A stretch of 38,560 nucleotides of DNA from a virus (lineage: Duplodnaviria; Heunggongvirae; Uroviricota; Caudoviricetes). Below are positions 6,521 to 38,508 of the stretch, one piece after another (positions within the stretch are counted from its first letter, which is position 1; each line of letters starts with the position of its first letter). The stretch covers positions 1 to 38,560 of IMG/VR virus record IMGVR_UViG_2529292890_000001; one strand, given 5' to 3'. Made by a program: the position numbers and the translations under genes. The notes below the pieces were generated by a model. It made no database searches, was not told where the DNA came from, and worked only from the letters and a program-made list of their open reading frames with translations.

Positions 6521-9500
6521 TTAACGTTCTTCCAGAGACTGAATCCGCTCTTTTATCTTATCCATTTCTCTGCGCTGCCATGCTGCCTCGATATAGAATA
6601 AGAGATCAGGTCTGACCCCCCATCTAGATCCTGCTGGCGTTATTTCAACGCGCTCAATGATGTCTTCCATTACCATCACTGGATTATCATCCTCATCAAC
6701 AATGATGCTCCCGTCATTATCAGTCAGCTGTATTTCCCTTTGGCCAGTAATGACGTCATCATATACTGCGGGATAATCGTCATAGCAAAGAAAGGCATAG
6801 CGGCATGTTGTGCTTTCTTCTTCCATGAGTCCGTGAGAAATAAGAACATCACGAAGTTGCTGCGCGATTACACCATGATGTATCCTCGCCCCTTCTTCTC
6901 CCTTTATAGCGACAGCGTTCAGCCATTTATAAGCGATATACCTGACGTCACCCCAGGCATCCAGCAATGCTTCGTCAGGAGAGACCGGCTCTGTCTTTAA
7001 TGTTCCGTCACTGGTAACCACAGGATTGGAGCCAAGATAAACTGTCGAGAACCTGTTTCCCGGACCACCAAGAGCATTTACATTATCAAGATAAGGTTTA
7101 ACATCTCCGTTCTCAAAAAGATGTTCGAGTGCGTTATATACCGCGCGACGTGGAGTACTGCTTCCGGAACCATGCAACGTTATCATTGCACCATCTGCTG
7201 AAGACGTTGTTTCACCGCCGCTAACGATTAATCTCTGAGCGGTAACATCATCAGACGGTACTTTCTTCGCAATAATGGCGTAATTGCCCTCCAGTTTGAC
7301 TTCCGCGCGAACTTGTCCTGATGTACCTGCATGGACAGTCAGTGACTGGACGGCAACATCATCTGTGAAATCAACGGGTACAGGAACCGTCCTCACGCCG
7401 GACGTCGACATAAAAGTAGGAAGCGTTCTGTTAGGAGTGGCTCCGTAGACAAAATCCCTTGAAACAAATTCTTCCTGTTTAATTTTCACCCTGAAACAAT
7501 ACAAATCAGCCGGGTGACCATCGTGAACATAAGGATATTTTCTGTTGTTATCCCCTATGCTCCATGGGTTTAGAAAGTCTTCCCCACCGAAAATGTAGTA
7601 CAGCCAGTTGTCTTTGATACAAACTGAACCAACACCAACCGCAGAGTTAACTATTCCGCCCTGATAAATCTGATCAGTAACATTAACCCACTCTACATTA
7701 TCCAGACTCCACTCATTGACGTTAACTCTGGTCATAAATGTTCTTGGATAATTTCCTGCATAACGGTTATCAGGTTCTCCTCCTTCCCACTCACCAAATG
7801 CGCGCTCACTGCCAAAAATAATCAGCTCATCGCCAACTTTGGCAAAAGGAAGGTTTGAGTGATGAACATTATTTGGGAAGCGAAGAGAATTCCATGATGC
7901 ACCTAAATCAGAGCTTCTGTGCAATGAACTACCGGGTTGAGTACTTAATGTCCCCCTGGTCGTCAGATACAGAATGCCATCATAATATTTTACACATGGC
8001 TCAGATGCATTCGCCTCATATTCTGCAGGTATGCGTCTGCGAACAAAGCTACCAGGAGAACCGAAAGCATCAGAGAAATAGAGTATCCCAAGCTCGCGTG
8101 GACCAATATCACCATTATGGTAGCCAACAGCAAAACTGTTATCGCTAATCGTCGCAAAACTGTGAATCTCAGTAACAGGAGTGCTTCCGTCAACAAAAGA
8201 AGAAATAGTTCCAAGACTGGTTTTTCTCCATGGTGACGAGTGAAATGATGTACCAAAACTCCAGTATCTACCCTCGTTATTCTGATCCACATCCTGAGTA
8301 TTTTGCGTCGTAACTGTAAAAGTATTTTTATCAATAACAGTAGTCACCGTCATATTCCCGGTAACACCTGTAACACCAGAGTTTGAGAAGTTGACAAAAT
8401 CACCAGCAAATAATCCGTGATCAGTAATGCGAATATAAGCGACTTGCTGATTTGCTGCTTTCGTTATACCACCATAAACGCGAAGGCTGCGACTCATTGG
8501 ACGATCCCACAACTCTGCAACCTGCAGTTTATTTCCGCGCACGGTCCGCGTCTCAATTACAGCAAAAAGGCGATTTCTGACAACCCCCATACTCATGCAG
8601 TGATAGTTAACTGTGGGATAGTTTTCATGTAAATCTGTAAGCCATTCCGGCGTTGTCCAGGTCTTCCCGTCATCTCCTGAGCGAACCCATGCAACATGGA
8701 GGTTATTTACACCATGGCGGTCTCCAGCCATAAAAGGCGCATAGATGACATTGTCATATACAAACGTTTTATCCTGCGTCCAGGCGTTGTACCACGGTGT
8801 ATCTGTAATTTTAAATAACTCTCCCTGGATAAAATCTTCAGAAGCATAAAAAAGAGGCTGACCCGGTATTCTCTCAAATAAAAAACGAGCATTTTTAAAT
8901 CGGCTGACATCCGGAAGAGTTGATACTTTAAAAGTAAGCCCTAATCCGTCAATTTTATAACCTGGAGATGAGGCTTCAAGGCACGCGCTTATTGCAGTGG
9001 AATCGTCATTTATACCATCACCAACAGCTCCAAAATCTTTGGGGCTAATAGCATCACGCATTTTATCCTGGAACGTTCGGTATACTGCCCCAGAACCATA
9101 CTGAATAAACCAACCAAAACCACCAACAACCCCGGCGATTGCAGCATCGACATAATTACGCATTGAGCGATTATTTACAGCGTCCTGTTCAAGTGATGGA
9201 TCTGCAAGGTTAGAAATTCTGTTTTGCTTTGCATCGTAATATTTTGCAAGCAAAGATGGTTTCATCAATGCACGTCTGAACCATCCAAAACATTGCTGGA
9301 TCAGCATCGTCAGGTAGTCAAAGGCATCTTCATGCACTTCGGGGAAAAACTTTCCCTGATTGCGAAGGTCTGTCTCCTGCACTACATCAAGCACACGATC
9401 TATCGTAATTCTCCATCCAGTAGCAAGCGGCGACGGAAGAACCACAGAACCGCCACTATAAGTGCCCGCCCCAGTTACCGTATAACCGGTATCCAGAACC

Positions 9501-9640
9501 AATTCTGTTACGTTCCCGTTCAGGTCAGACACCTGAACAACCAGGTCGGATTTTCTGAAAATTCGAAAAGTATACGGAAACGATGTCGTAACGCCGTTAC
9601 CGGTGTATTCGTTGTGGTCAACTTCGGTTGAGACCGTCAT
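6521..9640 (-). CDS. Tailspike / receptor-binding depolymerase: N-terminal particle-binding domain, central beta-helix and BNR (Asp-box) region, C-terminal self-cleaving chaperone (peptidase S74-like)
   Basis: 1039 aa; DFGAVGDGINDDSTAI (pectate-lyase-like beta-helix start); Asp boxes SGDDGKTWT and SSDLGASW; C-terminal ...VVTS-DGTLK... followed by a helical LE-rich tail. Confidence 0.8.
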   Translation of the reverse strand: MTVSTEVDHNEYTGNGVTTSFPYTFRIFRKSDLVVQVSDLNGNVTELVLDTGYTVTGAGTYSGGSVVLPSPLATGWRITIDRVLDVVQETDLRNQGKFFPEVHEDAFDYLTMLIQQCFGWFRRALMKPSLLAKYYDAKQNRISNLADPSLEQDAVNNRSMRNYVDAAIAGVVGGFGWFIQYGSGAVYRTFQDKMRDAISPKDFGAVGDGINDDSTAISACLEASSPGYKIDGLGLTFKVSTLPDVSRFKNARFLFERIPGQPLFYASEDFIQGELFKITDTPWYNAWTQDKTFVYDNVIYAPFMAGDRHGVNNLHVAWVRSGDDGKTWTTPEWLTDLHENYPTVNYHCMSMGVVRNRLFAVIETRTVRGNKLQVAELWDRPMSRSLRVYGGITKAANQQVAYIRITDHGLFAGDFVNFSNSGVTGVTGNMTVTTVIDKNTFTVTTQNTQDVDQNNEGRYWSFGTSFHSSPWRKTSLGTISSFVDGSTPVTEIHSFATISDNSFAVGYHNGDIGPRELGILYFSDAFGSPGSFVRRRIPAEYEANASEPCVKYYDGILYLTTRGTLSTQPGSSLHRSSDLGASWNSLRFPNNVHHSNLPFAKVGDELIIFGSERAFGEWEGGEPDNRYAGNYPRTFMTRVNVNEWSLDNVEWVNVTDQIYQGGIVNSAVGVGSVCIKDNWLYYIFGGEDFLNPWSIGDNNRKYPYVHDGHPADLYCFRVKIKQEEFVSRDFVYGATPNRTLPTFMSTSGVRTVPVPVDFTDDVAVQSLTVHAGTSGQVRAEVKLEGNYAIIAKKVPSDDVTAQRLIVSGGETTSSADGAMITLHGSGSSTPRRAVYNALEHLFENGDVKPYLDNVNALGGPGNRFSTVYLGSNPVVTSDGTLKTEPVSPDEALLDAWGDVRYIAYKWLNAVAIKGEEGARIHHGVIAQQLRDVLISHGLMEEESTTCRYAFLCYDDYPAVYDDVITGQREIQLTDNDGSIIVDEDDNPVMVMEDIIERVEITPAGSRWGVRPDLLFYIEAAWQRREMDKIKERIQSLEER

Positions 9641-9743
9641 GTTAAATCTCCAGATAGTCGCAGCACCCGTTGCGCCGCATATCTGGTCATTCTATTACCT
9701 AAAAAACCACATATGGATAGAAAGACTGTGAATACGAATAGAT

Positions 9744-9760
9744 ATTACCTTTCGGGTAAT
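9744..9760 (-). promoter_or_regulatory. Dispersed palindrome copy A: ATTACC-TTTCG-GGTAAT
   Basis: 17-bp inverted repeat about 100 bp upstream of the tailspike start; a half-site ATTACC (9694-9699) plus AACCACATATG (9705-9715) lies between. Confidence 0.55.
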
Positions 9761-9798
9761 TTGCAAAACGTGCTGGATAGCAAACAAATTATTTGCTA

Positions 9799-9814
9799 CT
9801 GTATAAATATACAG
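9799..9814. promoter_or_regulatory. LexA (SOS) box CTGT-N8-ACAG
   Basis: 20-mer tactgtataaatatacagtt (9797-9816) matches the LexA consensus taCTGTatatatatACAGta; overlaps a TATAAAT -10-like element about 25 bp upstream of the 9837 ATG. Confidence 0.7.
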
Positions 9815-9836
9815 TTATTGCATGGAGAATATTAAG

Positions 9837-10094
9837 ATGCAGCAGTATCACTATCCACTGGAAGACGGATTTACCGAAAGGATTCACACGCCGGGAGGCG
9901 TCAGGTCACTGGTGGAGGGATCGCACTTGATGAAATTACTCCGGGATCTCGATAAGGATGGATTTAATGTCGATGGCCCACTTGCCGAACTGACTGCACT
10001 GATTAACTACGTCACCAGCTCACAGATGTCTATGCAGGATCTGCAAACACATCTCGACTATTGTGCCGAACAATTACGAAAACAAACCCGGTAA
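9837..10094 (+). CDS. Small SOS-controlled protein, candidate antirepressor (paralog of the C-terminal domain of the BRO-N protein at 11245-11931)
   Basis: 85 aa from the ATG at 9837 (RBS GGAG; the track ORF starts at 9822); about 45 percent identical to the last ~65 residues of the BRO-N protein; LexA box immediately upstream. Confidence 0.6.
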   Translation: MQQYHYPLEDGFTERIHTPGGVRSLVEGSHLMKLLRDLDKDGFNVDGPLAELTALINYVTSSQMSMQDLQTHLDYCAEQLRKQTR

Positions 10095-10116
10095 ATTTAA
10101 AGGCCGCAAGAGCGGC

Positions 10117-10845
10117 CTATCGTTTCGCTTTGTGCTCATCCCAGCACGTTTTGCACCATGCCATTAAGCCGTCCGCATTTTGATTATTAGGGTAAAAGCT
10201 GGTTCGTTTTCTGCGGACATTACAAATTGGGCACCACTTCATATGGCGTGTATTCTTTGGGCCATCGAGACACCTTGCACACCACTTAGTCAATCCATCT
10301 GGATTTTTTGACGATTTCCTGAATTTTTCATATGGAAGGTTTATTCTGCATCGCAAGCACTGCTTGCTACCACTTGAAACTCTGTTAGCTGATTCTTCTT
10401 TTGGCGGCGATACAGAAGGTATTCTTGCTGGCTCTGATACTGCCTGAGGTGCTTTTTTAGATGACTGAGACGATATGTCATCACCAGGGAATCTTCCATG
10501 ATATGCCGGACGCGTTGACACTCCAGGTGGAAGCTCAGCTGTAAACGGCTTTGGCTGAATCAGTTGCCTCTCTTTTGCTAACTCCTGCTGTTTATAATAT
10601 GTCTGGATTACCGCACTATCATAAGCAGGAGGTGCGGAAATATTAGGCGCATTACCTCCAGTTTTTTGAAACTGAGTAGAGGTGTGTTCTATCACCTGTG
10701 TACGATTAATCGTTATCTCCCCATCTTCGGTCTTTATCGTTTTGTTATGATTAACGACCGTACGATCAGAGATCTTAGTCTTGTTCTGGTTGATAACGTA
10801 AATAATCACCGCAACCACACCAACAACTATCCAGAAAACTTCCAT
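10117..10845 (-). CDS. Membrane-anchored protein with C-terminal tandem CxxC zinc-ribbon repeats; function unknown
   Basis: 242 aa; N-terminal TM helix, S/T/P/Q-rich linker, C terminus with CLRC...WCARC...WCPIC...WCKTC; RBS GAGG; two palindromic motif copies upstream. Confidence 0.6.
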   Translation of the reverse strand: MEVFWIVVGVVAVIIYVINQNKTKISDRTVVNHNKTIKTEDGEITINRTQVIEHTSTQFQKTGGNAPNISAPPAYDSAVIQTYYKQQELAKERQLIQPKPFTAELPPGVSTRPAYHGRFPGDDISSQSSKKAPQAVSEPARIPSVSPPKEESANRVSSGSKQCLRCRINLPYEKFRKSSKNPDGLTKWCARCLDGPKNTRHMKWCPICNVRRKRTSFYPNNQNADGLMAWCKTCWDEHKAKR

Positions 10846-10864
10846 TGCTTTTCCTCACAATAAC

Positions 10865-10881
10865 ATTACCTTAAAGGTAAT
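10865..10881 (-). promoter_or_regulatory. Dispersed palindrome copy B: ATTACC-TTAAA-GGTAAT
   Basis: 20 bp upstream of the start of the Zn-ribbon membrane protein gene. Confidence 0.55.
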
Positions 10882-10957
10882 ATCTTGCTTTCAGGTGATC
10901 AAGCGTTAAACGCAATCAACCAAATACGGTTGATTTTTATATTTATCAGCGTTTATC

Positions 10958-10974
10958 ATTACCTTTGCGGTAAA
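10958..10974 (-). promoter_or_regulatory. Dispersed palindrome copy H: ATTACC-TTTGC-GGTAAA
   Basis: Second copy 93 bp from copy B in the same intergenic region. Confidence 0.5.
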
Positions 10975-11063
10975 TTTACATCGCACTCCTCTTGTGCCAT
11001 AGTAATCGAGCACTGGCAAAATCCAGTGCCGGGATTTGCACCCCGGATTACTAAAAGGCGCAT

Positions 11064-11086
11064 ACCACGCCAGACGTGGTTTTTTT
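11064..11086 (+). terminator. Candidate intrinsic terminator in the leader upstream of the BRO-N gene
   Basis: accacg-ccaga-cgtggt followed by T7. Confidence 0.4.
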
Positions 11087-11244
11087 ATGCGTATAGCACA
11101 GTCATGCCAGAATTATGGTGGGACGTGCAGGGGCACCGAAAGGTGCGCCGGGTCCTTTTAGCCGGTAGTGCAAACCCTGTACGTCTCACCACCAACGAGA
11201 TTTGCACCTCAGGTGGTGATTAACCATACTAAAAGGTGATTGCC

Positions 11245-11931
11245 ATGACTGCTAACGTAACCCCATCTGTTTTTCATTTTGAATCAGAAGCAACCATTCG
11301 AGCCATTGTTATTGATGGAAATCCTTGGTTTGTTGCCAAAGACGTTATTAAAGCTCTTCAACTGACAAACCCCACCATGTCAATCAAATCTCTTGATGAT
11401 GATGAAAGGGCTAAATTTAACTTAGGTCGTCAAGGCGAAACCAATATTATCAGCGAGTCAGGCCTCTACACACTGATCCTCCGCTGCCGCGATGCGGTGA
11501 CACCAGGCACTATCCCCTACCGCTTTCGTAAATGGGTTACAGGTGAGGTTCTTCCTCAGATCCGCCGCACCGGAAGTTACATTAAAAACTCGCTCCCGCA
11601 GGAAGAACGCATAAAGATGGTTGCCGACCAGGTAGCCAACGCCACAGCATCAGCAGTGATGCAGGCGATGAAGATAGAGAACAAAACCTACAGTGCCCCA
11701 CTGAAGCCCGGCTACCGCAGCCTGATTCACTCGCCGTCTGGTGTTCTCGGCCTGACGGAGAACTCACTGCTGATGAATCTGTTGAACCAGTTACAGGAAG
11801 ACGGGCACGACGTATCGGGCGCGGCGGCGGAGCTGACCACCATGTTCTGCTACATCGTCGGTGTGAGCAAATGCCTGCGTGATATCCAGACTCACGCGGA
11901 GTACATCAACGACAAAGCAGGATTCTTCTGA
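11245..11931 (+). CDS. BRO-N domain protein (antirepressor-like, two-domain)
   Basis: N-terminal FHFESEATIRAIVIDGNPWFVAKDVIKAL is a BRO-N signature; C-terminal domain paralogous to ORF 9837-10094; ATG at 11245 with RBS AAAGGTGA (track ORF uses GTG at 11236). Confidence 0.65.
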   Translation: MTANVTPSVFHFESEATIRAIVIDGNPWFVAKDVIKALQLTNPTMSIKSLDDDERAKFNLGRQGETNIISESGLYTLILRCRDAVTPGTIPYRFRKWVTGEVLPQIRRTGSYIKNSLPQEERIKMVADQVANATASAVMQAMKIENKTYSAPLKPGYRSLIHSPSGVLGLTENSLLMNLLNQLQEDGHDVSGAAAELTTMFCYIVGVSKCLRDIQTHAEYINDKAGFF

Positions 11932-12002: not shown

Positions 12003-12019
12003 ATTACCCCAAAGGTAAA
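12003..12019 (+). promoter_or_regulatory. Dispersed palindrome copy K: ATTACC-CCAAA-GGTAAA
   Basis: 26 bp upstream of the plus-strand small membrane protein gene; spacer orientation flipped relative to copies ahead of minus-strand genes. Confidence 0.5.
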
Positions 12020-13285: not shown

Positions 13286-13474
13286 TTATTTTATTATTCT
13301 TCCGAACAATACAATTCCGAATACTACAAAGCCGAACCATGCCGCTGCACGCAACAGAGATTCCAATTGAAACCCATTTTTATCAAAATGTATGAATAGC
13401 ATAAAAACGCTGCACATATTAGTACAATAAAAGTTATTTGAACCATCATATCTCCTTTTATTGCGGAGTGACAT
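13286..13474 (-). CDS. Possible small membrane protein (62 aa)
   Basis: ORF with hydrophobic C-terminal segment overlapping the end of the upstream virion gene; weak support. Confidence 0.25.
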   Translation of the reverse strand: MSLRNKRRYDGSNNFYCTNMCSVFMLFIHFDKNGFQLESLLRAAAWFGFVVFGIVLFGRIIK

Positions 13475-15932
13475 CCTGTGGTCGCCACCAGTATGTCTGG
13501 TTAAACTCTTTCTTCGAACGTTGCTCCATTTTACGCAAATAGCCTGGTGAAAAATACTCCTGCATCTGGTTAAAGATCATGTGATCGAGAGCCGCCTTCA
13601 AGTACCAGAGATTCGCACCAGGCATCAAACCTTTCCCCAGCTTCACCAGATCACCACCAGTCTGCTCACTCTTCCCTTCCACAGCATTTAACGGTATGCC
13701 CTGAGCAATCTTCACTACGTCATCAACCAGACCAGCTACCGGGCCAAGCATCGACGCCAGCGCGCCGCTTCCGTACCTAGTGTGATCTGACAATAAAAAG
13801 TCACCGTAAAGGCCAAGACCACCACCTTTCAGTAGAGCACCAAGCCAGAATTTTGCGGCATCTTCTCCTGTCATCTCTCGAGGATTACGACCAGACGCAA
13901 GGTCGTTAAGTTGCTGCGACAAAGCGCCAAGAATGGTCGTACTGGCAATAAACGTCGCAATATATGCCGCACGCCCACCAGCAGACGGCATACCCATAGC
14001 GCGTGACCAGTGACGCATAACAACCGAGATAGGGAACGATTTAAACAGGAAAACACTTCTCGTTAATTCACCTTTCCATGTTCCACGCTGAATACCAGAA
14101 CCGGTTATCAGTTGCTCACGTGCTCCCGGTGTAATAACAGCCATATCAACTTCTTCAGTTACGGCACCGAGCAGTTTACGCATTGCCTCAAATTTCACGC
14201 GTTCAGGCTCACCAAGATGTTTAACTGCTGAATCAGGGATACGCATAATGCTTTCCGGTGTCAGCATCGTATTATTACCGTTCCCCCAGTCCTCCTGTTT
14301 CGCCAGCTTCCATACGCTCCAGTCTGTGTCAGTAATCCCTTTGCTTTTCAGGATACGAAAATCAGAGTCATCGAGGCTACGAAGGTCTGGTGTCCGTGAC
14401 ACTACTTCTCCCAGGCTTCCCATCATGGTTACGCCATAGGCGCGCTTGTGCGCATCTGACCATGCTGTAAGCCCACTGGCACGCATTACCGCCGTTGCCG
14501 CCCAACGAGACACTGACGGCCCCATATTATCCATCGCCCAGCGGTTAACGCTGCCAAGTAGAGATTCCATCGCCAGACCAGCGCGGCGCGCCCGCGCAAG
14601 TTCTGTACGGTTCGTTGGGTCCATAGCTTCAAGCTGGTTGCGGAATAACTGGTTCATTGGAAGGTTGGTAACCTTCGCAGACAGATACATGGTTCCAAGA
14701 TCAGAGAACGATGACAGCAACGCGGATCCGAGTCTGCTGGCAACCAGCCAGTTGCGGATATTGTCAGACCATCGCGCGATGTGCGGATTCGCTACAGGCT
14801 GTGTCTTTCCGGAAATAAAGTTGTACAGATTCTCTGTGTTGTTCGCCAGCCGCTCGACTTTACCGGTTTTACTCGGGTTAGCTGTTGCCGTTTCTGCCTT
14901 CACCTGATCAAGAAGAGAGCGGAAAACATGATCGGGGTTTGGGCCATATGTTTCCACCAGTGCAATATCTTTACTGATACCTTCCAGGTGACCGACCATG
15001 ATTTCCCATAGAGAGCGATCGCCATAAAGTTGCTGATATTGCAGATAGGAATCTGCATCTTTGAAATGTATCTGTCGTGATGCATTACCACGGTTAGCAC
15101 GTGCGCCGGAAATTCGCATTCCGGTATCAGTAAGCTTATTCAGCCCACCAGTAGCGATCGTGTTATAAGCCTCTCCAAGAAATGAAGACAACTCGGCATC
15201 GTTCATCAGTTGTCCATCGGCTCGGATATAATATTTGCGATCCAGCCTACCTATAACATCGCTAACCCACTTATCCTTTGATACTGCCCCAACCTTTTCC
15301 ATAGAATGATGTTGAGGGATCCCCCAGTTTTCGAGATAGCCAATGTCCCCACCAGCATCATTAAACCGGCGGCGCAGCAGCTCTGTAACTTCTCTCCACG
15401 CCTTAGCACCGTTTCTTGCTTTAGCATTGCCAGTAGTTTGCCCCCGCATTTCATATACCAGGTCACGTACGCCCGCTTCATCTTCAAACAGACCAAAAAA
15501 GCGAGGATCAACTGCTTCGAATGCCTCCTGCAATTGACTCAATGCATAATCACGGGTGGCTTTTGTTCTGGATTCAACAGAGAGGAAATTAGATTTACCG
15601 TCTGCATTAAAAGCTATAGTACGGTTAAGAGCGCCAAGTTTCCCATCAGCCCCTTGATAGCTATTGATAAATTTATCCAATCTCTGACGCGCGGCTATAG
15701 TGAGAGCCACACGACGTTTCTTTAATGCCGCTTCTCGCTGTAATTCTTCAGATGCCAATTGTGCTGCTCGATATAGCCGCTCTGATTCGGAAAGTTGTCG
15801 CCACGACATAGGGTCATCACGAGCAATGGAGCGCATATTTCGATAAATGCGGTCTTCAATGTTCTGTATTTCTCGCGCCGTTAACATGCGCTGCGCCGCC
15901 TGCTGAACCGCTTGTATACATTCCTGTCTCAT
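13458..15932 (-). CDS. Large internal virion / DNA-ejection protein
   Basis: 824 aa; last of a run of large genes after the tail genes, where podoviruses encode ejection/core proteins; RBS GAGAGG. Confidence 0.5.
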   Translation of the reverse strand: MRQECIQAVQQAAQRMLTAREIQNIEDRIYRNMRSIARDDPMSWRQLSESERLYRAAQLASEELQREAALKKRRVALTIAARQRLDKFINSYQGADGKLGALNRTIAFNADGKSNFLSVESRTKATRDYALSQLQEAFEAVDPRFFGLFEDEAGVRDLVYEMRGQTTGNAKARNGAKAWREVTELLRRRFNDAGGDIGYLENWGIPQHHSMEKVGAVSKDKWVSDVIGRLDRKYYIRADGQLMNDAELSSFLGEAYNTIATGGLNKLTDTGMRISGARANRGNASRQIHFKDADSYLQYQQLYGDRSLWEIMVGHLEGISKDIALVETYGPNPDHVFRSLLDQVKAETATANPSKTGKVERLANNTENLYNFISGKTQPVANPHIARWSDNIRNWLVASRLGSALLSSFSDLGTMYLSAKVTNLPMNQLFRNQLEAMDPTNRTELARARRAGLAMESLLGSVNRWAMDNMGPSVSRWAATAVMRASGLTAWSDAHKRAYGVTMMGSLGEVVSRTPDLRSLDDSDFRILKSKGITDTDWSVWKLAKQEDWGNGNNTMLTPESIMRIPDSAVKHLGEPERVKFEAMRKLLGAVTEEVDMAVITPGAREQLITGSGIQRGTWKGELTRSVFLFKSFPISVVMRHWSRAMGMPSAGGRAAYIATFIASTTILGALSQQLNDLASGRNPREMTGEDAAKFWLGALLKGGGLGLYGDFLLSDHTRYGSGALASMLGPVAGLVDDVVKIAQGIPLNAVEGKSEQTGGDLVKLGKGLMPGANLWYLKAALDHMIFNQMQEYFSPGYLRKMEQRSKKEFNQTYWWRPQDVTPQ

Positions 15933-15937
15933 TTAAT

Positions 15938-17740
15938 TTAACCTCTCAAGAAACACGCCACAGCGACATCAAACAGGCTGGAATCCTGTATTGCCTGCTC
16001 ACTTTCCCTGTTCGCTTCATCCAGTGCTTCACGCGCACTGCGCGATTGTGGATTACCATCATCATCCAGCACGGTGATTATCATGTCAGGTGATTCAAGC
16101 AGCGAGTCTTCAGCTATGCGCAAATCAATATCTCCTGCCTGATCTGACATCATTTTTTGTTCTGCCTGTTGCAATATTTTATCAGGCTCAAAAGGAGCTA
16201 CTTCGTCTGGCGTCCTGACCTCTGCTGTTTTATAGAATGAAACAGCCTGAGCATTAAGTTCACTTTCTGCCTGCTGTCTCCGAGCCAGTTCTGCTCGAGC
16301 TTCAAAAAACTGACCGCCAGGCTCATGCGGTGCCAACGCGTTACGAGAAAATTCCAGGCGTTCTTGTGCCTGCCGGATTCGTTGGTCAATATCGCGAAGT
16401 CTGGCCTGTTTATCTGATCGAGCACGAGATAAAGCCTTACCGCTACCGGCTGGATCTTCTGCAAGAATTTGTGCGCGCTGTTCAGTGAGATTTTCAATAA
16501 TTCGTTGGCTATTAGCGATTTCAGACTGGTAAACCTGTCTATCGCCACGCGGCAAAAGCTGCGCGGCCTGTTCTTCAAGCAACCGATTTTCTATAGCGCG
16601 CGCCGTTACTCCATCATCTACAGATGACAGAGCCTCATTAACTGCCTGAGACAGCAGACTCTTGCGTCCAGGAATTTCACTGAAAGATGCAGACTCAACA
16701 ATGCTGGCAACGTCTACAGGTCTCCCCTGGCTAACATCAGACATGGCTTTTCGCAGAGCCTGAATGTGCGAATTACGCGAAAGCACGTTGATCGGCACGC
16801 CGGGAGCAATATCAATTTCAGCATGATGAGCGGCATTCGCCGCCAGTGCAGCATCGATATCAACTGGTGAAAAATTTGGTGCGCTTGTAGACTCGCCGCG
16901 AGAGTTAATAAATCTGCCGACACCACCAAACGCCACCCCAAGAACAGCATCAATAGCAATTGCCTGTCGATCCAACACATCATACTGGTTAGCCATTTCG
17001 CTATAGCCACCATCACGAAGCGTTTTTGCAGTAAGCCCACGCTGTGCCATACCGAACGCAATATTTGTACCTGCGGCATAGGCAATATCTGGCGTTGCAC
17101 GTACTGCTGTTGCTGCGGCGCGTCGCACTGAACTTTCACCCGTCCGCGCAAGCTGAGCCGCCACACCTTCCGCCAGCGCACCACCAGCACGTAACCCGAG
17201 GCTCATAGGGATCAGTGTTCCGGCACCAGCAGTAATACCCTGCACTAATCCCGCTTCCTGCGCCGTCCTGAAATCAACACCCTGTGCTGTAAGCCGTTCA
17301 AACTCAGAAAAACCCTGTAGAGAAGTTACCGCCGCAGCACCTCCGACCGGACCACCGAGCGTTGTACCGACAACAGCCTGCCCGCCCATATCGAACAACC
17401 CATAAAGGACCTGCCCGGCGGTTCCGGTTGTCGCGGCATCAGGCGTCAGCCGCTTAACCTGCTGCTCTGCTAGTTTTCTCTGCTCAGCAATGTATGAAAC
17501 TGAAGTGTCATTGATCGAGGTGTTTTCGTTAACAAACTGAGCAATCGGGGATACGATTTTATCCATCCCTGCCCATAGCAACTGATCTGGCTTTGCCACC
17601 AGCCCGGAGTACAAACCAGACAATGCCGCTCCTACAGCATTGTCGAAAAAACCAACATCGCTGTTAAAGCCAGCTGGATTTGATGCTGCTTCGTCAAGCT
17701 GCTGATTCTGGTTTACTGGATTAAGGCCAAAGTAACTCAT
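15938..17740 (-). CDS. Internal virion / ejection protein (Gly/Ala-rich)
   Basis: 600 aa; low-complexity G/A-rich segments; start overlaps the upstream stop. Confidence 0.5.
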   Translation of the reverse strand: MSYFGLNPVNQNQQLDEAASNPAGFNSDVGFFDNAVGAALSGLYSGLVAKPDQLLWAGMDKIVSPIAQFVNENTSINDTSVSYIAEQRKLAEQQVKRLTPDAATTGTAGQVLYGLFDMGGQAVVGTTLGGPVGGAAAVTSLQGFSEFERLTAQGVDFRTAQEAGLVQGITAGAGTLIPMSLGLRAGGALAEGVAAQLARTGESSVRRAAATAVRATPDIAYAAGTNIAFGMAQRGLTAKTLRDGGYSEMANQYDVLDRQAIAIDAVLGVAFGGVGRFINSRGESTSAPNFSPVDIDAALAANAAHHAEIDIAPGVPINVLSRNSHIQALRKAMSDVSQGRPVDVASIVESASFSEIPGRKSLLSQAVNEALSSVDDGVTARAIENRLLEEQAAQLLPRGDRQVYQSEIANSQRIIENLTEQRAQILAEDPAGSGKALSRARSDKQARLRDIDQRIRQAQERLEFSRNALAPHEPGGQFFEARAELARRQQAESELNAQAVSFYKTAEVRTPDEVAPFEPDKILQQAEQKMMSDQAGDIDLRIAEDSLLESPDMIITVLDDDGNPQSRSAREALDEANRESEQAIQDSSLFDVAVACFLRG

Positions 17741-20250
17741 TGCGGAATATCTCCGGAGAATCTCTGACGCTTCTGTGTCAGATTAAGAACAACGGGAGAA
17801 CCATCATCTTTCAGCAGATAACCAGTACCAAGTTTAACCAGGTACTGACTATCGCCGTAACTTTGCAAACCATACTGACCAGGCGGTGTTTTTATCCCGG
17901 AGCCGACAACTTGTTCATTCCAAGCCTGATTAACCTGCTTATCGAATTGCTCTGCAGACATTCCCCACGGCAAAAGGACATTCCCCATTCCGTTATAGTC
18001 ATGCACGCCACCTGTAGCTACGTTAACAGCCTGTTTCCAGACATCATTGTCAATTTCGCCTGATACCACGCCTTTTTTCGCCATCACACCAGCGTAATAA
18101 TCCTTTGCGATCTCGTATGCCATTGATGCGCCCTGAGCGTCACCAGCAAATGCATCCTTCACCATGTCAGAAAACTCAAGGCGAAGATCAGCATCTTTAG
18201 GCATCGGAATACCTTTCGCATCATCAGTACCTTTACGAGCCGCCGCGCCAGCAAGAATTGTCTGCGCAGCGGTTTCAGGAGACACGGAAACATCCGGATT
18301 AAACCAGTTTTTTTCTGCCAAAATACCACCAGGCTTATCCATCAGTATCCCGGCAACGGCAGCAGATGGAGCGTTGGCACTGATCTGCTGTAGTGCTGAC
18401 ATATACACCTGCCCACCACCAGTGCTCTGCCTGATGGTATCGAGATATGCTGCCTGTTGGGAAACTGGAGCATCACGAAAGAAAACACCGATCTGATTGG
18501 CCTCGTCTTTGGAAAAGAACGTCAGTGGAGTGCCATATGACTTAGCAAGGTCACTGACCTGAGCGGCACGCAAGGCAACGCTCTGTCCAAAGTTATCCTT
18601 ATTGCTCATGTCGATAGGCTTTGCCTGTCCGGAGGCAAGAGAGAACTGCACAGGATCCGACTGCCGCTGCTTTATCACCTGATTTGCAGCCGAAACAACG
18701 TTGTCATAAAGAGCTGCGCGTGCCGCATACCCCTCCCCTGTTTCACCAGTATCCGGGCGTAATTGCTCAACATATGCTGTAATGCTGCTTGTCGGCATGT
18801 TGCGGAAAGAGCCGATATACTGTCCGGCGATCTGCGTATTCTTAAACTCGGTATATCGCAGGTTTCCTTCTCTGACTCCATAAGCTGCAATAAAATCATC
18901 CTCACCAGGTGGGTTAGGAAATTCAACGCCACGCATATACGCAGCCGTCGCATCGCGAACCCGGCTGTCGAGCATCGTTTTATATTCAGCCTGCTGTTGT
19001 CTGGCTAGTGCATCAGTCTGTCGCAACACGCTGGCCTGATCTGATTCACTTAAAGCATCGAACCAGGCTACACCGGTATAACGTTTATTTTTTGTCGGTA
19101 GCTGAGAAAGCCCCAGCGCAGCACTAACACCTGCAGTTAACTGCTGATCACTGTATGGCTGGCTACCGTTTTCATGATGGATAATGGCTGCACAAAGCGC
19201 CTTCAGGGTATCAGGATTTGATGCATCGAGAGGCTCATCAGCAGAAACGCCAAGTTGTTCGCACACTGCTTTGATATACGACATAGTGTCATTTTTATCA
19301 GTAGGCGGTGCCCAGCGATTAATTATCTCGCTGACGGTATCAATACCCTGCCGCTGATACGACATCAGGTTCCGCCCTAATGCACGAATACCGTGTTCAG
19401 GGGTTTCGAATTTGGCAAAGCGACCATCATCACCAGTCTGCCCAACCCACGGATTAGTTTTGCTGTATTCAAGATTGCCGGGGTTATTGTTGCGTATACC
19501 GCGGGTACGATCGGAAGAGCCACTATCTGCTACAGCACGGCGAGATCCAGCAGCAGTATCGCTTAACTCGCCGTTTTGCTGTCTTACCTGAAGATAGTTT
19601 GCTCCAATAGCATTTTGAGCAGTTGCTTTTGCTGTTGCTTCTTTAAACTCGATTTTCTTGGCCTGGATTTGCTCGTCACTCCAGCCATGTGCAATGCCGT
19701 AATCCTCAATTTGCTGGAAAGTTTGCTTATTAGCCAATACGTATGCGACGTTGTCGCCATACAATGCTGCGGCATTTTTACCATTGTTCAGCAGCGTAGC
19801 CTGAAACTGGCCTTCTTCGTAGGCATTTATTTGCCCTATCTCGTGCCGCCCTGCCTGCGTAGTGAACTGAATGCGCTGCTGCTGCGCCTGCTGCATGAAA
19901 GCATTACGAGCCTGTTCATCCGGCAGCGACATAGCCAGTTGTTCGACCTGAGCATCAAACTGCTGCGTATACTCCTGACCTTTTCCAATAGCATTTTTCC
20001 CTTTCAGGTTAAGCAATCCTGTTTCAGGATTATTCAGCAGATCACTGCTTATCTGACTGAGGTTAAGAGATGCCTCCTGAGCCAGAGCGATATTGGCACG
20101 CTGTTTTGCCTGACCAAAAACATCAATTGCCTCTGTCCCTGCCCGAACAAAAGCATCACCAATACCTGGCTGAGAAAACGTCTGCAAGCCTGCTGACTGA
20201 ACTCCACGGCTCTGAACCTGACGGCCGGATACTGTTGGTACGACTGGCAT
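17737..20250 (-). CDS. Large internal virion protein with a possible cell-wall-hydrolase-like segment
   Basis: 837 aa from the ATG at 20250 (RBS GGAGG; track ORF starts at 20325); internal segment GIRNNNPGNL...RWAPP...; domain assignment is tentative. Confidence 0.45.
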   Translation of the reverse strand: MPVVPTVSGRQVQSRGVQSAGLQTFSQPGIGDAFVRAGTEAIDVFGQAKQRANIALAQEASLNLSQISSDLLNNPETGLLNLKGKNAIGKGQEYTQQFDAQVEQLAMSLPDEQARNAFMQQAQQQRIQFTTQAGRHEIGQINAYEEGQFQATLLNNGKNAAALYGDNVAYVLANKQTFQQIEDYGIAHGWSDEQIQAKKIEFKEATAKATAQNAIGANYLQVRQQNGELSDTAAGSRRAVADSGSSDRTRGIRNNNPGNLEYSKTNPWVGQTGDDGRFAKFETPEHGIRALGRNLMSYQRQGIDTVSEIINRWAPPTDKNDTMSYIKAVCEQLGVSADEPLDASNPDTLKALCAAIIHHENGSQPYSDQQLTAGVSAALGLSQLPTKNKRYTGVAWFDALSESDQASVLRQTDALARQQQAEYKTMLDSRVRDATAAYMRGVEFPNPPGEDDFIAAYGVREGNLRYTEFKNTQIAGQYIGSFRNMPTSSITAYVEQLRPDTGETGEGYAARAALYDNVVSAANQVIKQRQSDPVQFSLASGQAKPIDMSNKDNFGQSVALRAAQVSDLAKSYGTPLTFFSKDEANQIGVFFRDAPVSQQAAYLDTIRQSTGGGQVYMSALQQISANAPSAAVAGILMDKPGGILAEKNWFNPDVSVSPETAAQTILAGAAARKGTDDAKGIPMPKDADLRLEFSDMVKDAFAGDAQGASMAYEIAKDYYAGVMAKKGVVSGEIDNDVWKQAVNVATGGVHDYNGMGNVLLPWGMSAEQFDKQVNQAWNEQVVGSGIKTPPGQYGLQSYGDSQYLVKLGTGYLLKDDGSPVVLNLTQKRQRFSGDIPQ

Positions 20251-20795
20251 TATAATCCTCCGGGTAATCTGGTTCCTGCTGCTGCCCCGATTGGCGCAGG
20301 GGTGCTTTGAGTAAACGGACTCCACGTCCCACCAAACATCTGGTACGCACCGTATGCCTTCAGAGGCGCAGTGAGCAATGTTGTTGCTGCTCCCACATTC
20401 CCCTGTTTACGGGCTGAACTGGCTTCTGCTTTATAGTTGGCAGCCTGAACCTGATAACCGTAAGCCTCGCGTTGCGCGTTATTCACCGTCGTCAGCGAAT
20501 CAAGAGCGCCAAACTGAGCAGTGTCACCAAATATATCCAGCGCGTTACCTGTAGATAAATCGGCGCCGGTCGCCCCCATTGTCGCCGCCTGTGTACCAAG
20601 CCGCTGTCGGGTCTCTCTGCGCCGTTGCTCAGCTTCAGCGTTACCCCTGTTTATTGCATCATTTGCCTGAGCTGTGGCTATATCTGCGTTCGCTTCTGCA
20701 ACCTTCGAGGCATACCTTACCTGTTGGTACTGGGTGTATGCCTGAATGCCACTCATGGCGAGCATTGCGCCACCAGCAATAACCGGATCGCACAT
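20250..20795 (-). CDS. Small internal virion protein (T7 gp14-like position)
   Basis: 181 aa, Ala/Gln/Gly-rich, between the nozzle-side genes and the large ejection proteins. Confidence 0.4.
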   Translation of the reverse strand: MCDPVIAGGAMLAMSGIQAYTQYQQVRYASKVAEANADIATAQANDAINRGNAEAEQRRRETRQRLGTQAATMGATGADLSTGNALDIFGDTAQFGALDSLTTVNNAQREAYGYQVQAANYKAEASSARKQGNVGAATTLLTAPLKAYGAYQMFGGTWSPFTQSTPAPIGAAAGTRLPGGL

Positions 20796-27539: not shown

Positions 27540-29215
27540 TGTGATTGCCCACCCTGACCACTAACTGCATTCGCCATAGCTGACAAAACACTCGGATCCG
27601 AAGTTTTAGCTTCACTTAGCGTCTTGGCACCCTGTGCCGCCGCCATCCCCATCGCCATCATTTGTTGCTGCTGTTGTTGCTGTGCCCGTTGCTGGCGAGC
27701 CTGCTCAACCTGTTCCTGCGGAACAATGACGGTTGGAGACACTCCGGACATATCAGCGAATGCATCGATCGCCTGATCAACGTTGAGTTTGTCGAGAGCT
27801 TCTGGTTTCGCTTGCGCAAGTTGACCAATGAAGTTAACCGTGGACGCCAGACTGGACAGGCCGATAGACTTCTGCGCCTGAGCCATGACGGAAATGTATT
27901 CGACCTTCAGGGGCATGCCTTCCATCGCGTCAGGCGGTGGCGGCAGCATGTTTTTACGCACCATCATCGAGAAAGAGCGATCAATGAGAGGATTAAGACA
28001 TTCGTCGTTCAGGCGCTCCAGAACCGGCCCCAACATCAGAAGTTTTTCTTCTTTCATTTCGATCACCGCTTCCACAGGCATCGAGCGGGTATTGATGTTC
28101 TGCAACATCATGAACAGATCGACAAAGTAGGCGCTGTTAATGATTTGACGAGTGTCCTGAATGTCTGCCACCAAATCTGCTGTACTGGGGTTAACCAGAT
28201 AAGCAGGCCTGAAACCATCCTGACCAGTAATCTGATCGATATACGTGATGTCGCCAGGAAGAAGGGAGGCGCGCTGATTCTTGAGGGAAGTCGGAGCAAC
28301 CATCGGCGGATTGGTGGCTTTATCAATCAACTGCGACTTGCGCTTCTGGAGAAGCTGCAATGCCTTAACAGGTCCAAGCGCCAGCATACCCGGGCATGAT
28401 GATCCATAAACATCTTCGCCGTTAACTTCCCAGCGCGGAGCCATAATTGGAAACTCATCGAATCCGGACTCACGCAACAACTTGTCGTTATCGCCACCAA
28501 CCTCGTAATAAACCGATTTGAATGGCTTGTTCTTGCTATCCAGCTTCGATGTATCGCGGTCAATGTTCGGGTAAACCGAATGCATCACTTCAATCCACTT
28601 CTCGTAGGTGCCGCTTTCCCACATGCTTTTTACGGATTCGCTGACGTTATTTAGCCCGAACTCCTGAACAAGCTGACGAACAGTCATAGAGAACTTGCGA
28701 AAACAGGTGTCCACACTGCCACGAGGTGAGTTAGCCAGGTAGTAACTGCCTATCGGGAATGGCATTGTGCGAATGATGTCCTCGTCATCCTCCAGCACCG
28801 CCATTGCACCAGTGCTGTATGTGCCGAGGCTTCCGTATAACTGCGGAAGAGACTGGTAGAGATTCGACTTATTGAACATATCGTTCATGCGGTTCTGCAC
28901 CGCCTCGAGCCACAACTTAACAGGACCATAATCCATCATTTCAGGATCTGGCGTAGCCAGGCGAAACCACGGACGCGCAGGGCTTGTGATGCCTGACATC
29001 ATGCCGCTGGCGAGAGTGCGCGCCGCCATAGTCCCGGTCGAATCAATAATGCGTGTATTGCGTCGATCGTTACGGTTGACTTCAGAAGTCAGAAAGCGGG
29101 AACCACGCGGGTTGATGTAATCACTCAACTCGCGCCAGTGCGGCTCGAACGACTGACGCTCGCTTTCAAGTTGTGCGAACTGTTTGTTCAATCGCTCTTT
29201 AGTTGTTTCCGCCAT
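27536..29215 (-). CDS. Portal protein
   Basis: 559 aa; typical size; C-terminal poly-Q/Ala/Met tail; follows the packaging genes. Confidence 0.7.
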   Translation of the reverse strand: MAETTKERLNKQFAQLESERQSFEPHWRELSDYINPRGSRFLTSEVNRNDRRNTRIIDSTGTMAARTLASGMMSGITSPARPWFRLATPDPEMMDYGPVKLWLEAVQNRMNDMFNKSNLYQSLPQLYGSLGTYSTGAMAVLEDDEDIIRTMPFPIGSYYLANSPRGSVDTCFRKFSMTVRQLVQEFGLNNVSESVKSMWESGTYEKWIEVMHSVYPNIDRDTSKLDSKNKPFKSVYYEVGGDNDKLLRESGFDEFPIMAPRWEVNGEDVYGSSCPGMLALGPVKALQLLQKRKSQLIDKATNPPMVAPTSLKNQRASLLPGDITYIDQITGQDGFRPAYLVNPSTADLVADIQDTRQIINSAYFVDLFMMLQNINTRSMPVEAVIEMKEEKLLMLGPVLERLNDECLNPLIDRSFSMMVRKNMLPPPPDAMEGMPLKVEYISVMAQAQKSIGLSSLASTVNFIGQLAQAKPEALDKLNVDQAIDAFADMSGVSPTVIVPQEQVEQARQQRAQQQQQQQMMAMGMAAAQGAKTLSEAKTSDPSVLSAMANAVSGQGGQSQ

Positions 29216-29525: not shown

Positions 29526-29542
29526 ATTACCTTTCAGGTAAC
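29526..29542 (-). promoter_or_regulatory. Dispersed palindrome copy C: ATTACC-TTTCA-GGTAAC
   Basis: About 90 bp upstream of the small ORF/portal operon; half-site ATTACC (29464-29469) plus AACCACATATG (29475-29485) nearby; a TTGACA hexamer at 29505-29510. Confidence 0.55.
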
Positions 29543-29863: not shown

Positions 29864-29940
29864 GTGGCATTAGCTCAGTTGGACAGAGCAACCGCCTTCT
29901 AAGCGGTTGGTCGCAGGTTCGAATCCTGCATGCCACGCCA
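29864..29940 (+). tRNA. tRNA-Arg (anticodon UCU), phage-borne
   Basis: 77 nt; acceptor GTGGCAT/ATGCCAC; D arm GCTC/GAGC; anticodon stem accgc/gcggt with loop CTTCTAA; T arm gcagg-TTCGAAT-cctgc; discriminator G plus CCA. Confidence 0.85.
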
Positions 29941-32079: not shown

Positions 32080-32672
32080 TGATTGCCATCCTGACGTTCT
32101 TTCAGTCTCTTCCTGGCTGCCGCTATGCGATCAGCAATTGTCACATTCACATTAACATCCAGGCGTTCTTTGAATGCGTTGACGTCGACGTGCTTACCAA
32201 TCAGTTCGAGGTTCTTCACCTTGTCAGGCCATTTAATTTTTTTGAGGATTGTCTCTATCGAATCCTCGTTCATGTTCATGATGGTCGATGACAGATCAAA
32301 GCCACTAAGCGTAGTGCGCCAGATTTTCGGCCACTCGCGGATTGGCTTAAGGCTCCCATCGTCGTTGAGGATGTCGATCACGTCCATCTGGTCGATCTCC
32401 ACCAGGCGCATGAGAACGTAATCAGCACTGACGCGCATTCGTTTGTTGCGCTCTTCCATCAGCTCGGCAATCCGTTTTTGAATGCGTTCATCGCGCATCA
32501 TGAGACTGGCTTTAACTGCCGCTGTATTTGGGGAGAATCCTGCGTTAATCGCAGCCTGAGTCTGGTTTTCAGGCGTTTGGATGTATGACTGGCAATAAGC
32601 CTCCTGCATTGCTGTTAGTGGCTTAAATTGCGTTGATTTGCGTTTATAGGTTTTAGGTTCAGCAGGCATCAT
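32076..32672 (-). CDS. Terminase small subunit
   Basis: HTH-like KPLTAMQEAYCQSYIQTPENQTQAAINAGFS; directly upstream of and overlapping TerL; start taken at ATG 32672 (track ORF extends on a TTG to 32750). Confidence 0.7.
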   Translation of the reverse strand: MMPAEPKTYKRKSTQFKPLTAMQEAYCQSYIQTPENQTQAAINAGFSPNTAAVKASLMMRDERIQKRIAELMEERNKRMRVSADYVLMRLVEIDQMDVIDILNDDGSLKPIREWPKIWRTTLSGFDLSSTIMNMNEDSIETILKKIKWPDKVKNLELIGKHVDVNAFKERLDVNVNVTIADRIAAARKRLKERQDGNQ

Positions 32673-32681
32673 AACCACCGT

Positions 32682-32711
32682 GGTAATAGTTACCGTTGTG
32701 GTAATAGTACC
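32682..32711. repeat. Tandem direct repeat GGTAATAGT(T)ACC x2 just upstream of terS
   Basis: ggtaatagttacc (32682-32694) and ggtaatagtacc (32700-32711); each is an everted GGTAA/TTACC palindrome sharing the half-site of the dispersed motif. Confidence 0.5.
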
Positions 32712-36490: not shown

Positions 36491-36507
36491 TTTACCCCTT
36501 AGGTAAT
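36491..36507 (-). promoter_or_regulatory. Dispersed palindrome copy D: TTTACC-CCTTA-GGTAAT
   Basis: Abuts the DUF1064 start codon; followed by ACCACATAAG (36512-36521). Confidence 0.5.
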
Positions 36508-36552: not shown

Positions 36553-36569
36553 ATTACCTCTAAGGTAAT
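36553..36569 (-). promoter_or_regulatory. Dispersed palindrome copy E: ATTACC-TCTAA-GGTAAT
   Basis: Between the P-like stop and the DUF1064 start, 46 bp from copy D. Confidence 0.55.
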
Positions 36570-38491: not shown

Positions 38492-38508
38492 ATTACCTTT
38501 GAGGTACG
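38492..38508 (-). promoter_or_regulatory. Dispersed palindrome copy F: ATTACC-TTTGA-GGTACG
   Basis: Upstream of the small Zn-ribbon gene and O/P replication genes. Confidence 0.5.

Follow-up and report, generated by a model that had tools for sequence, protein, structure and literature searches.

We consider it likely that positions 10958–11931 of the IMG/VR virus record IMGVR_UViG_2529292890_000001 (38,560 nt; this whole stretch is called the window below) form an immI module of the P1/P7 type, in which a C4 antisense RNA, derived from the gene's own leader, gates translation of a BRO-N-domain antirepressor. Judged by its Rfam matches, the leader of the BRO-N gene is made up of two small RNAs known before, IsrK and the P1 C4 antisense RNA. 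The whole module is an ordinary, unannotated copy of a known RNA-controlled antirepressor module and no new kind of system. An earlier, sequence-only reading of this DNA had compared the region with the mnt-arc-ant-sar region of phage P22; the correct homologues are instead the P1/P7 immI operon and the isrK locus of Gifsy-1. The module is composed as follows:

10958–10974, no strand: 17-bp palindrome ATTACCTTTGCGGTAAA, abutting the –35 hexamer; putative Rep/Cro-type repressor operator
10975–11003, + strand: predicted sigma-70 promoter (–35 TTTACA, 17-nt spacer, TG-extended –10 CATAGT), predicted start at ~11010
11010–11086, + strand: IsrK-type small RNA, the counterpart of the a1/b1 leader segment of P1 immI (Rfam RF01394)
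11035–11041, + strand: a1, UUUGCAC, in the loop of IsrK hairpin 2; complementary to C4 a' (exact over 7 nt)
11051–11058, + strand: b1, CUAAAAGG, in a single-stranded IsrK linker; complementary to C4 b' (exact over 8 nt)
11111–11196, + strand: C4 antisense RNA (Rfam RF01695)
11154–11161, + strand: b', CCUUUUAG, in the loop of C4 hairpin 2 (complement search and fold)
11168–11174, + strand: a', GUGCAAA, in a single-stranded C4 junction (complement search and fold)
11201–11207, + strand: a2, UUUGCAC, target of a', between the short complementary flanks GAG...CUC (exact complement)
11229–11236, + strand: b2, CUAAAAGG, target of b' (exact 8-nt complement)
11245–11931, + strand: two-domain antirepressor-like gene, 228 aa (BRO-N at aa 18–104, C-terminal domain at aa 144–226)

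IsrK and C4 in the leader

The whole window was scanned with Rfam at gathering thresholds and then in a more permissive scan. Such a scan had been recommended by the sequence-only reading, and it placed both isrK and C4 above their curated cut-offs. The isrK family matched 11010–11086 with 67.4 bits (cut-off 50; E 1.8e-12), and the RNA has the form of IsrK, with two 5' hairpins followed by an intrinsic terminator at 11064–11086 (fold z = –2.3). The terminator was recovered by an independent terminator scan as well, with the stem ACCACG/CGTGGT at 11064–11080 and a T run reaching to 11086; the hairpin followed by T7 that had been pointed out at this place is the terminator hairpin of the Rfam isrK model. 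For C4 we observed a full-length match (model positions 1–87) with 77.8 bits (cut-off 45; E 1e-13). It folds into a 17-bp closing stem around two hairpins, with a minimum free energy (MFE) of –49 kcal/mol and z = –5.9. These internal hairpins lie at 11133–11146 and 11147–11166, and it is on them that the second hairpin of the earlier reading, near 11141–11170, falls. From homology with the annotated ends of the 77-nt P1 C4, the mature RNA is predicted to be 77 nt long (11117–11193).

The permissive scan added a match to c4-a1b1 (RF03163, 'a1, b1 targets of C4') with 36 bits at 10997–11049, in the same DNA as isrK. The overlap recurs in phage P1: isrK, which belongs to no clan, and c4-a1b1, which belongs to clan CL00128, match the same DNA at 10997–11086 in the window and at 28218–28312 in P1 (locus L082). 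The P1 leader matches the isrK model with 35 bits (E 8.5e-6), its terminator-like hairpin included, and c4-a1b1 with 51 bits. Since the P1 leader matches the isrK model, IsrK corresponds to the a1/b1 segment of the immI leader; read from these shared matches, isrK and c4-a1b1 are one element under two names.

The promoter placed ahead of these RNAs comes from a promoter scan; its –10 region is invariant in 43 related leaders, and the isrK model begins 7 nt after it. An exact copy of the leader was seen in 16 complete E. coli genomes, and 489 of 5426 have related leaders. In RefSeq/PGAP no RNA gene is annotated in the 400-bp leader (NZ_CP126926.1, locus L207, 3001–3400), although both RNAs pass the Rfam gathering thresholds.

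The earlier reading saw no credible open reading frame (ORF) upstream of the BRO-N gene, and we agree. A 112-aa ORF with a TTG start does run mechanically across the leader (10885–11223), overlapping both RNA genes, a shorter one of 39 aa exists too, and the phiV10 record notes a part similar to a Shigella 'hypothetical protein'. A protein-coding leader is nevertheless very improbable: the TTG start has no Shine-Dalgarno sequence, the longer ORF spans the promoter, the terminator and two Rfam RNAs, and close relatives carry indels of 1–6 nt in loops and linkers that put the ORF out of frame but leave the base pairing intact.

Complementary sites and their covariation

The pattern TTTGCAC-N(5-30)-CTAAAAGG occurs three times in the 38.5-kb window, as a1b1, as a2b2 and, in the form of its complement, in C4, with 0 occurrences expected by chance. 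The b2 site overlaps the Shine-Dalgarno sequence of the BRO-N gene, AAGGUGA (11233–11239), which ends 5 nt before the ATG at 11245. The second target pair, a1/b1, lies upstream of C4 in the same predicted transcript.

Two routes led to relatives of the leader: the BRO-N protein (79 IMG/VR loci) and a pattern on the conserved C4 stem ends (120 loci). A helix matrix comparing cognate with non-cognate combinations held 132 distinct cassettes, and 61 representatives were aligned with MAFFT. As C4 loops taken from MFE folds were mis-parsed in about one-fifth of the cassettes, position-based segments and the helix matrix were used instead. The repertoire comprises 17 a' words and 54 b segments among the 132 cassettes; GUGCAAA, the a' word of the window, is rare (4/132). 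An a'–a2 helix of at least 7 nt was found in every one of the 132 cassettes vs. 1.7% (about 2%) of the non-cognate pairs, and an a'–a1 helix of at least 6 nt in 129. For b and b2 the mean helix length was 9.9 nt in cognate vs. 6.3 nt in non-cognate combinations, and b1 changes in step with b' among relatives.

The 61 representatives gave a similarly clear picture for the a sites and for the C4 fold. The a1–a' helix was 98.3% paired, with changes on both sides in six of its seven pairs, the C4 closing stem was 100% paired with 6 compensatory pairs, and in hairpin 1 all five pairs (5/5) were compensatory. None of 500 shuffles reached the observed covariation, and slid controls collapsed. The b'–b1 and b'–b2 helices were 53–58% paired in the MAFFT alignment, which captures them poorly because loop lengths differ, so that the ungapped helix search is the better measure for them. 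Covariation on this scale shows that both target pairs, a1/b1 as well as a2/b2, are under selection to match C4. The pattern is the heteroimmunity logic of P1/P7 on a much larger scale, and a repertoire this wide (no fewer than 17 a' words and 54 b segments, from a small sample) points to diversifying selection for RNA-specified heteroimmunity.

Either attenuation or a small RNA had been suggested for the leader beforehand. Regulatory RNAs and an internal terminator are indeed present, but attenuation by itself is contradicted by the covariation. If the T7 terminator at 11064–11086 merely limited read-through and the downstream hairpins had no RNA–RNA function, the canonical intrinsic terminator of the leader would be explained; the 78-bit C4 match, the exact bipartite complementarity and the three-way compensatory change across 17 a' words would be left unaccounted for, and we give plain attenuation very little chance.

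Just downstream of a2, at 11212–11223, stands GGTGGTGATTAA, which hardly varies among the 61 diverse cassettes. The 5' strand of the C4 closing stem is repeated in it; it also looks like an extended Shine-Dalgarno sequence and holds stop codons in two frames. As a repeat of that strand it could pair with UCACCACC (11186–93), giving an alternative structure with a2 in the loop. The pattern used to sample C4 loci kept TCACCACC fixed.

Leaders that precede 100%-identical BRO-N proteins differ sharply from the leader of the window, which indicates that leaders are exchanged by recombination. The first gene behind related cassettes is of BRO-N, Rha or ORF6N type (the last as in AnrP), mostly a full-size antirepressor-type protein, or, in a minority, a small ORF of 75–77 aa. 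These varied types make the RNA cassette a portable controller for different kinds of antirepressor. In IMGVR_UViG_2671181028_000005 (9652–11210) three cassettes stand in tandem, 656 nt apart, with the a' words CTGCGAA, ACGCCAA and GTTCCAA, each before a nearly identical Rha-like ORF of ~120 aa; here one effector would be placed under three distinct RNA locks. A second isrK-C4 cassette of other specificity was seen in about ten epsilon15-like relatives, on the opposite strand and before another antirepressor-type gene, whereas the window has one cassette. In one such copy (L026) a1 no longer matches a', and the copy is recombinant.

Antirepressor genes, operators and the phage

The BRO-N gene was recognized where the sequence-only reading had placed it: residues 18–104 of the 11245–11931 product match Pfam Bro-N (PF02498; E 1.5e-19), and the ATG at 11245 is also the RefSeq start. 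PHROG 130, 245 and 1760 ('anti-repressor') match the BRO-N protein, and PHROG 450 matches its C-terminal domain. No Pfam or NCBIfam family was found for this Ant-like domain, with E = 10 allowed. A duplicate of the domain in a small gene nearby had been estimated at ~45% identity; BLASTP gives 32 identities in 77 positions (42%; E 4e-20) between residues 144–220 of the BRO-N protein and residues 4–80 of the 9822–10094 product. The small gene and its control sites are:

9744–9760: repressor-type palindrome ahead of the small ant gene, directly next to a TTGCAA –35 candidate (hexamer read by eye)
9799–9814: perfect LexA box CTGT-N8-ACAG, CTGTATAAATATACAG, just upstream of the small gene
9837–10094, + strand: small antirepressor, 85 aa from the RefSeq start, paralogue of the C-terminal domain of the BRO-N protein

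The description of this gene as LexA-boxed was borne out by the perfect box, which is kept in phages SPC32H and phiV10; box and palindrome together are conserved upstream. The epsilon15-like phage SPC32H has a gene annotated 'ant: anti-repressor protein', with which the small gene shares 88% identity. In SPC32H, ant is reportedly controlled by LexA, and Ant is said to bind the repressor Rep, from the experiments of Kim and Ryu in 2013. Given the 88% identity between its small paralogue and SPC32H ant, a role for the BRO-N protein as another antirepressor carrying the same effector domain is very probable. The phage thus appears to have two antirepressors that share one effector domain, one wired to SOS through LexA and the other RNA-locked with a phage-specific key.

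SPC32H resembles the window in its small ant gene with LexA box and palindrome, and its Ant is of one family with the C-terminal domain of the BRO-N protein (PHROG 450). Unlike the window, it has no isrK-C4-BRO-N block, and ant is followed directly by genes for a membrane protein and a virion protein. It follows that segment 10117–13274 of the window was inserted as an accessory block, bringing in a second antirepressor, with the same effector domain fused to BRO-N. Relative to SPC32H, the insertion sits between ant and the gene of an 824-aa virion protein. Besides the RNA cassette and the BRO-N gene it holds a 242-aa membrane-anchored protein with Zn-finger/endonuclease VII-like repeats, two small membrane proteins and a 138-aa ORF of PHROG 3716.

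The BRO-N gene is flanked by an endosialidase tailspike gene (6521–9640) on one side and by large virion/injection-type proteins (13458–20325) on the other. The latter match PHROG 684, 1145 and 992, of which PHROG 992 includes a transglycosylase segment; the term 'ejection proteins' for them would be inferred from the family names only. The tailspike is a complete endosialidase with N-terminal extension, beta-propeller, beta-barrel, stalk and S74 chaperone, and a leader identical to that of the window is present in O2:K1:H5 avian pathogenic E. coli (E19035) as well as in strain EC21Z-151. From the endosialidase and the identical leader, the window is taken to be a K1-capsule-specific, epsilon15-like prophage.

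This map position, between virion/injection-type genes and the tailspike gene, is that of P22 immI, as the earlier reading had rightly noted. An organization of the P22 type would require Mnt and Arc repressors and a sar-like antisense RNA over the ant start; sar is transcribed from the opposite strand, across the start of ant. Elsewhere in the same region, the relative TL-2011b encodes both an Arc-like repressor and an Ant of the P22 type. Against this, Pfam and PHROGs revealed no Arc/Mnt-like gene in the five neighbouring ORFs of the window, and no promoter-like site was found on the minus strand near 11245–11330 by a consensus scan, itself a weak test. P22 Ant has both P22_AR_N and P22_AR_C in a domain search, whereas in the BRO-N protein Pfam detected neither, Bro-N being the only domain there, and its BLASTP similarity to P22 Ant is not significant (E 0.04). 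The RNAs of the window, moreover, lie upstream on the same strand. The sequence-only reading was right in supposing small-RNA control of an antirepressor, but the analogue it named, P22 mnt-arc-ant-sar, fails, and a P22-type immI is the least probable of the explanations considered. Both regions do lie beside a tailspike gene and have an antirepressor (presumed in the window) with small-RNA control at the ribosome-binding site; they differ in unrelated proteins and RNA, and in that P22 uses an opposite-strand antisense RNA and the protein repressors Mnt and Arc.

The palindrome at the leader promoter is one of many. TTACC-N5-GGTAA occurs in 8 perfect copies in the window vs. 0.67 expected, with 3 more at one mismatch, mostly in intergenic positions: 9745–9759, 10866–10880, 10959–10973, 12004–12018, 29527–29541, 32672–32704, 36492–36506, 36554–36568 and 38493–38507. 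phiV10 has three such palindromes between its cro-like and helix-turn-helix repressor genes, and the site is found in TL-2011b too. It is most likely a Rep/Cro operator, probably spread over many promoters in the manner of the C1 operators of P1. At both antirepressor promoters (for the small ant with hexamers read by eye) the centre of the palindrome is ~44 bp upstream of the predicted start, and a site at about –44 would suit activation as well as repression. Inside the phage, at 29864–29937, there is a tRNA gene (73 bits); upstream of it comes a TTGACA promoter-like site, and the palindrome at 29527–29541 overlaps the –10 region of that site.

Mechanism and comparison with known systems

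In the mechanism we favour, transcription would start at ~11010 from the sigma-70 promoter abutted by the repressor-type palindrome. The first 77 nt would yield an IsrK-type RNA that ends at the intrinsic terminator and carries a1 and b1, and read-through transcripts would include C4 (11111–11196); these steps are supported by the elements found in the leader. Homology and covariation suggest that b' and a' of C4 pair with b2 and a2, b2 lying over the Shine-Dalgarno sequence of the BRO-N gene. By analogy with P1 and Gifsy-1, C4 would be excised to ~77 nt (11117–11193), with RNase P acting at its 5' end, would be stable and active in trans as well as in cis, and would occlude the ribosome-binding site so that no antirepressor is made. 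The C4 of a resident prophage may then silence the ant gene of an incoming phage with the same a and b words, which would amount to RNA-specified immunity. Terminated IsrK, as a second copy of the target sites, would compete for C4, and translation may be released as the IsrK/C4 ratio rises. The BRO-N protein, through its C-terminal domain, would then bind and inactivate the prophage repressor.

Gifsy-1 carries the same cassette (locus L206, 34076–34349, minus strand) between the Q gene and STM2616 (AnrP). As in the window, IsrK with its terminator is followed by a C4-type structure, called 'orf45' there, and then by the antirepressor. Gifsy-1 'orf45' is, by homology, a C4-type RNA, and the AUG in the conserved C4 stem UUAUGGUGGG serves as its start codon. 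Counted from the IsrK start, G28 and G31 fall in a1 of Gifsy-1 (UUGGCGU, +26 to +32), and C159 and C162 in a' of the C4-type structure (ACGCCAA, +158 to +164). The compensatory pairs G28–C162 and G31–C159 tested in Gifsy-1 by Hershko-Shalev et al. (PMC4825925) are therefore the a1–a' helix. In that paper the C4 region is named 'orf45' and P1 is unmentioned, IsrK in trans raises AnrP translation ~140-fold, and STnc1160, a species of ~80 nt, is a processing product of the orf45 region (PMC4825925). IsrK and STnc1160 are abundant in lysogens. Derepression by C159U and C162U in Gifsy-1 fits a loss of a'–a2 pairing.

The positive switch described for Gifsy-1 could itself be the main mode of control in the window. 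The read-through leader would then be inert, since its IsrK part pairs with the C4 region in cis, short IsrK would open it in trans, and translation of the leader ORF through C4 would be needed for antirepressor synthesis (translational coupling). In its favour, the locus is homologous to isrK-orf45-anrP, for which the model comes from mutagenesis, structure probing and toeprinting (PMC4825925), and an ATG-started frame at 11105–11223 is open through C4. Yet the conserved AUG in UUAUGGUGGG (11115) meets a TAG at 11166–68, inside C4, and the other open frame (11105–11223) stops 21 nt before the BRO-N ATG; the leader-ORF coupling of Gifsy-1 therefore cannot work in the same way in the window. 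Across the 132 cassettes leader ORFs vary in start, frame and end, and their GC-rich stems are open in at least two frames in 96, by composition alone. The switch also leaves the covariation of a2/b2 with the C4 loops unexplained. We regard it as unlikely to be the main control, though deserving of more weight than the other alternatives; it is compatible with gating by C4 and does not exclude it. Gifsy-1 differs from the window further in its a and b words, in an antirepressor of ORF6N type (AnrP) instead of BRO-N, and in a leader ORF that ends in an AUGA overlap with anrP, which the window lacks.

Several points weigh against our preferred reading, C4 gating of the BRO-N gene. For this prophage, everything said about the promoter, the efficiency of the terminator, the processing of C4 and the amounts of RNA is prediction. 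Antirepressor function of the BRO-N protein is assigned from homology only, and the gene of its presumed target, the repressor, lies outside the window, just past its end. An icd-type coupled ORF is absent, and the Rho-polarity step of the P1 mechanism therefore need not apply. In Gifsy-1, G28A (in a1) raises basal expression 23-fold in cis (PMC4825925), an effect that a pure decoy role of a1/b1 does not predict.

A more specific proposal, which we advance tentatively and hold to be somewhat short of probable, is that IsrK is the a1/b1 half of a three-site RNA lock: a co-evolving mimic that titrates C4, with the ratio of terminated IsrK to processed C4 deciding antirepressor synthesis. A 2025 review treats IsrK and C4 as unrelated systems. 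If the proposal is true, it merges two literatures, that of P1 C4 as an antisense repressor and that of Gifsy-1 IsrK as a translational activator, together with two Rfam families now treated as unrelated, and it explains the long-unexplained a1/b1 sites of P1. With IsrK equated to the P1 a1/b1 sites, a specialist could also read the Gifsy-1 experiments anew. Annotation gains independently of this proposal: a stretch of 400 bp left blank by RefSeq in a K1-associated E. coli prophage holds two apparently functional RNA genes and an antirepressor control region.

A related arrangement has been reported for the APSE phages of Hamiltonella, in which c4 and isrK RNAs lie beside a BRO-N gene (bioRxiv 10.1101/2020.03.17.996009). 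As in the window, isrK and C4 occur together with an adjacent BRO-N gene, and a'/b' of C4 match the region upstream of it; these phages belong to a different group, and the case was an annotation remark only, in which a1/b1 were not analysed (10.1101/2020.03.17.996009).

The closest parallel in layout is P1 immI, for which the GenBank annotation gives the order Oc4, P2c4, P1c4, a1, b1, c4 (77 nt), a2, b2, icd, ant1/ant2. The window shares with it the order operator, promoter, a1, b1, terminator-like hairpin, C4, a2 and b2 over the ribosome-binding site, and the alignment of the two leaders extends over their whole length, the P1c4 (P51b) –10 hexamer included. The spacings are close as well:

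a1 to b1 gap: window 9 nt, P1 7 nt
a2 after the end of C4: window 7 nt, P1 3 nt
a2 to b2 gap: window 21 nt, P1 22 nt
b2 to start codon: window 8 nt, P1 10 nt

Unlike P1/P7, the window has no icd; the ATG at 11245 opens the BRO-N gene directly, and it is the antirepressor's own Shine-Dalgarno sequence that b2 covers. In the window the antirepressor combines BRO-N with an SPC32H-Ant-like domain, whereas that of P1 is a KilAC (ANT) protein, and no similarity was found between the BRO-N protein and P1 Ant1. The operators are palindromic in the window and asymmetric C1 operators in P1, and the host phage is an integrated epsilon15-like podovirus in one case and a plasmid prophage in the other. The C4 RNAs of P1/P7 and of the window share the same fold, the same 77-nt length (predicted for the window) and, for the window on homology, an antirepressor operon as target, and their specificity words vary from phage to phage, just as P1 and P7 have different ones.

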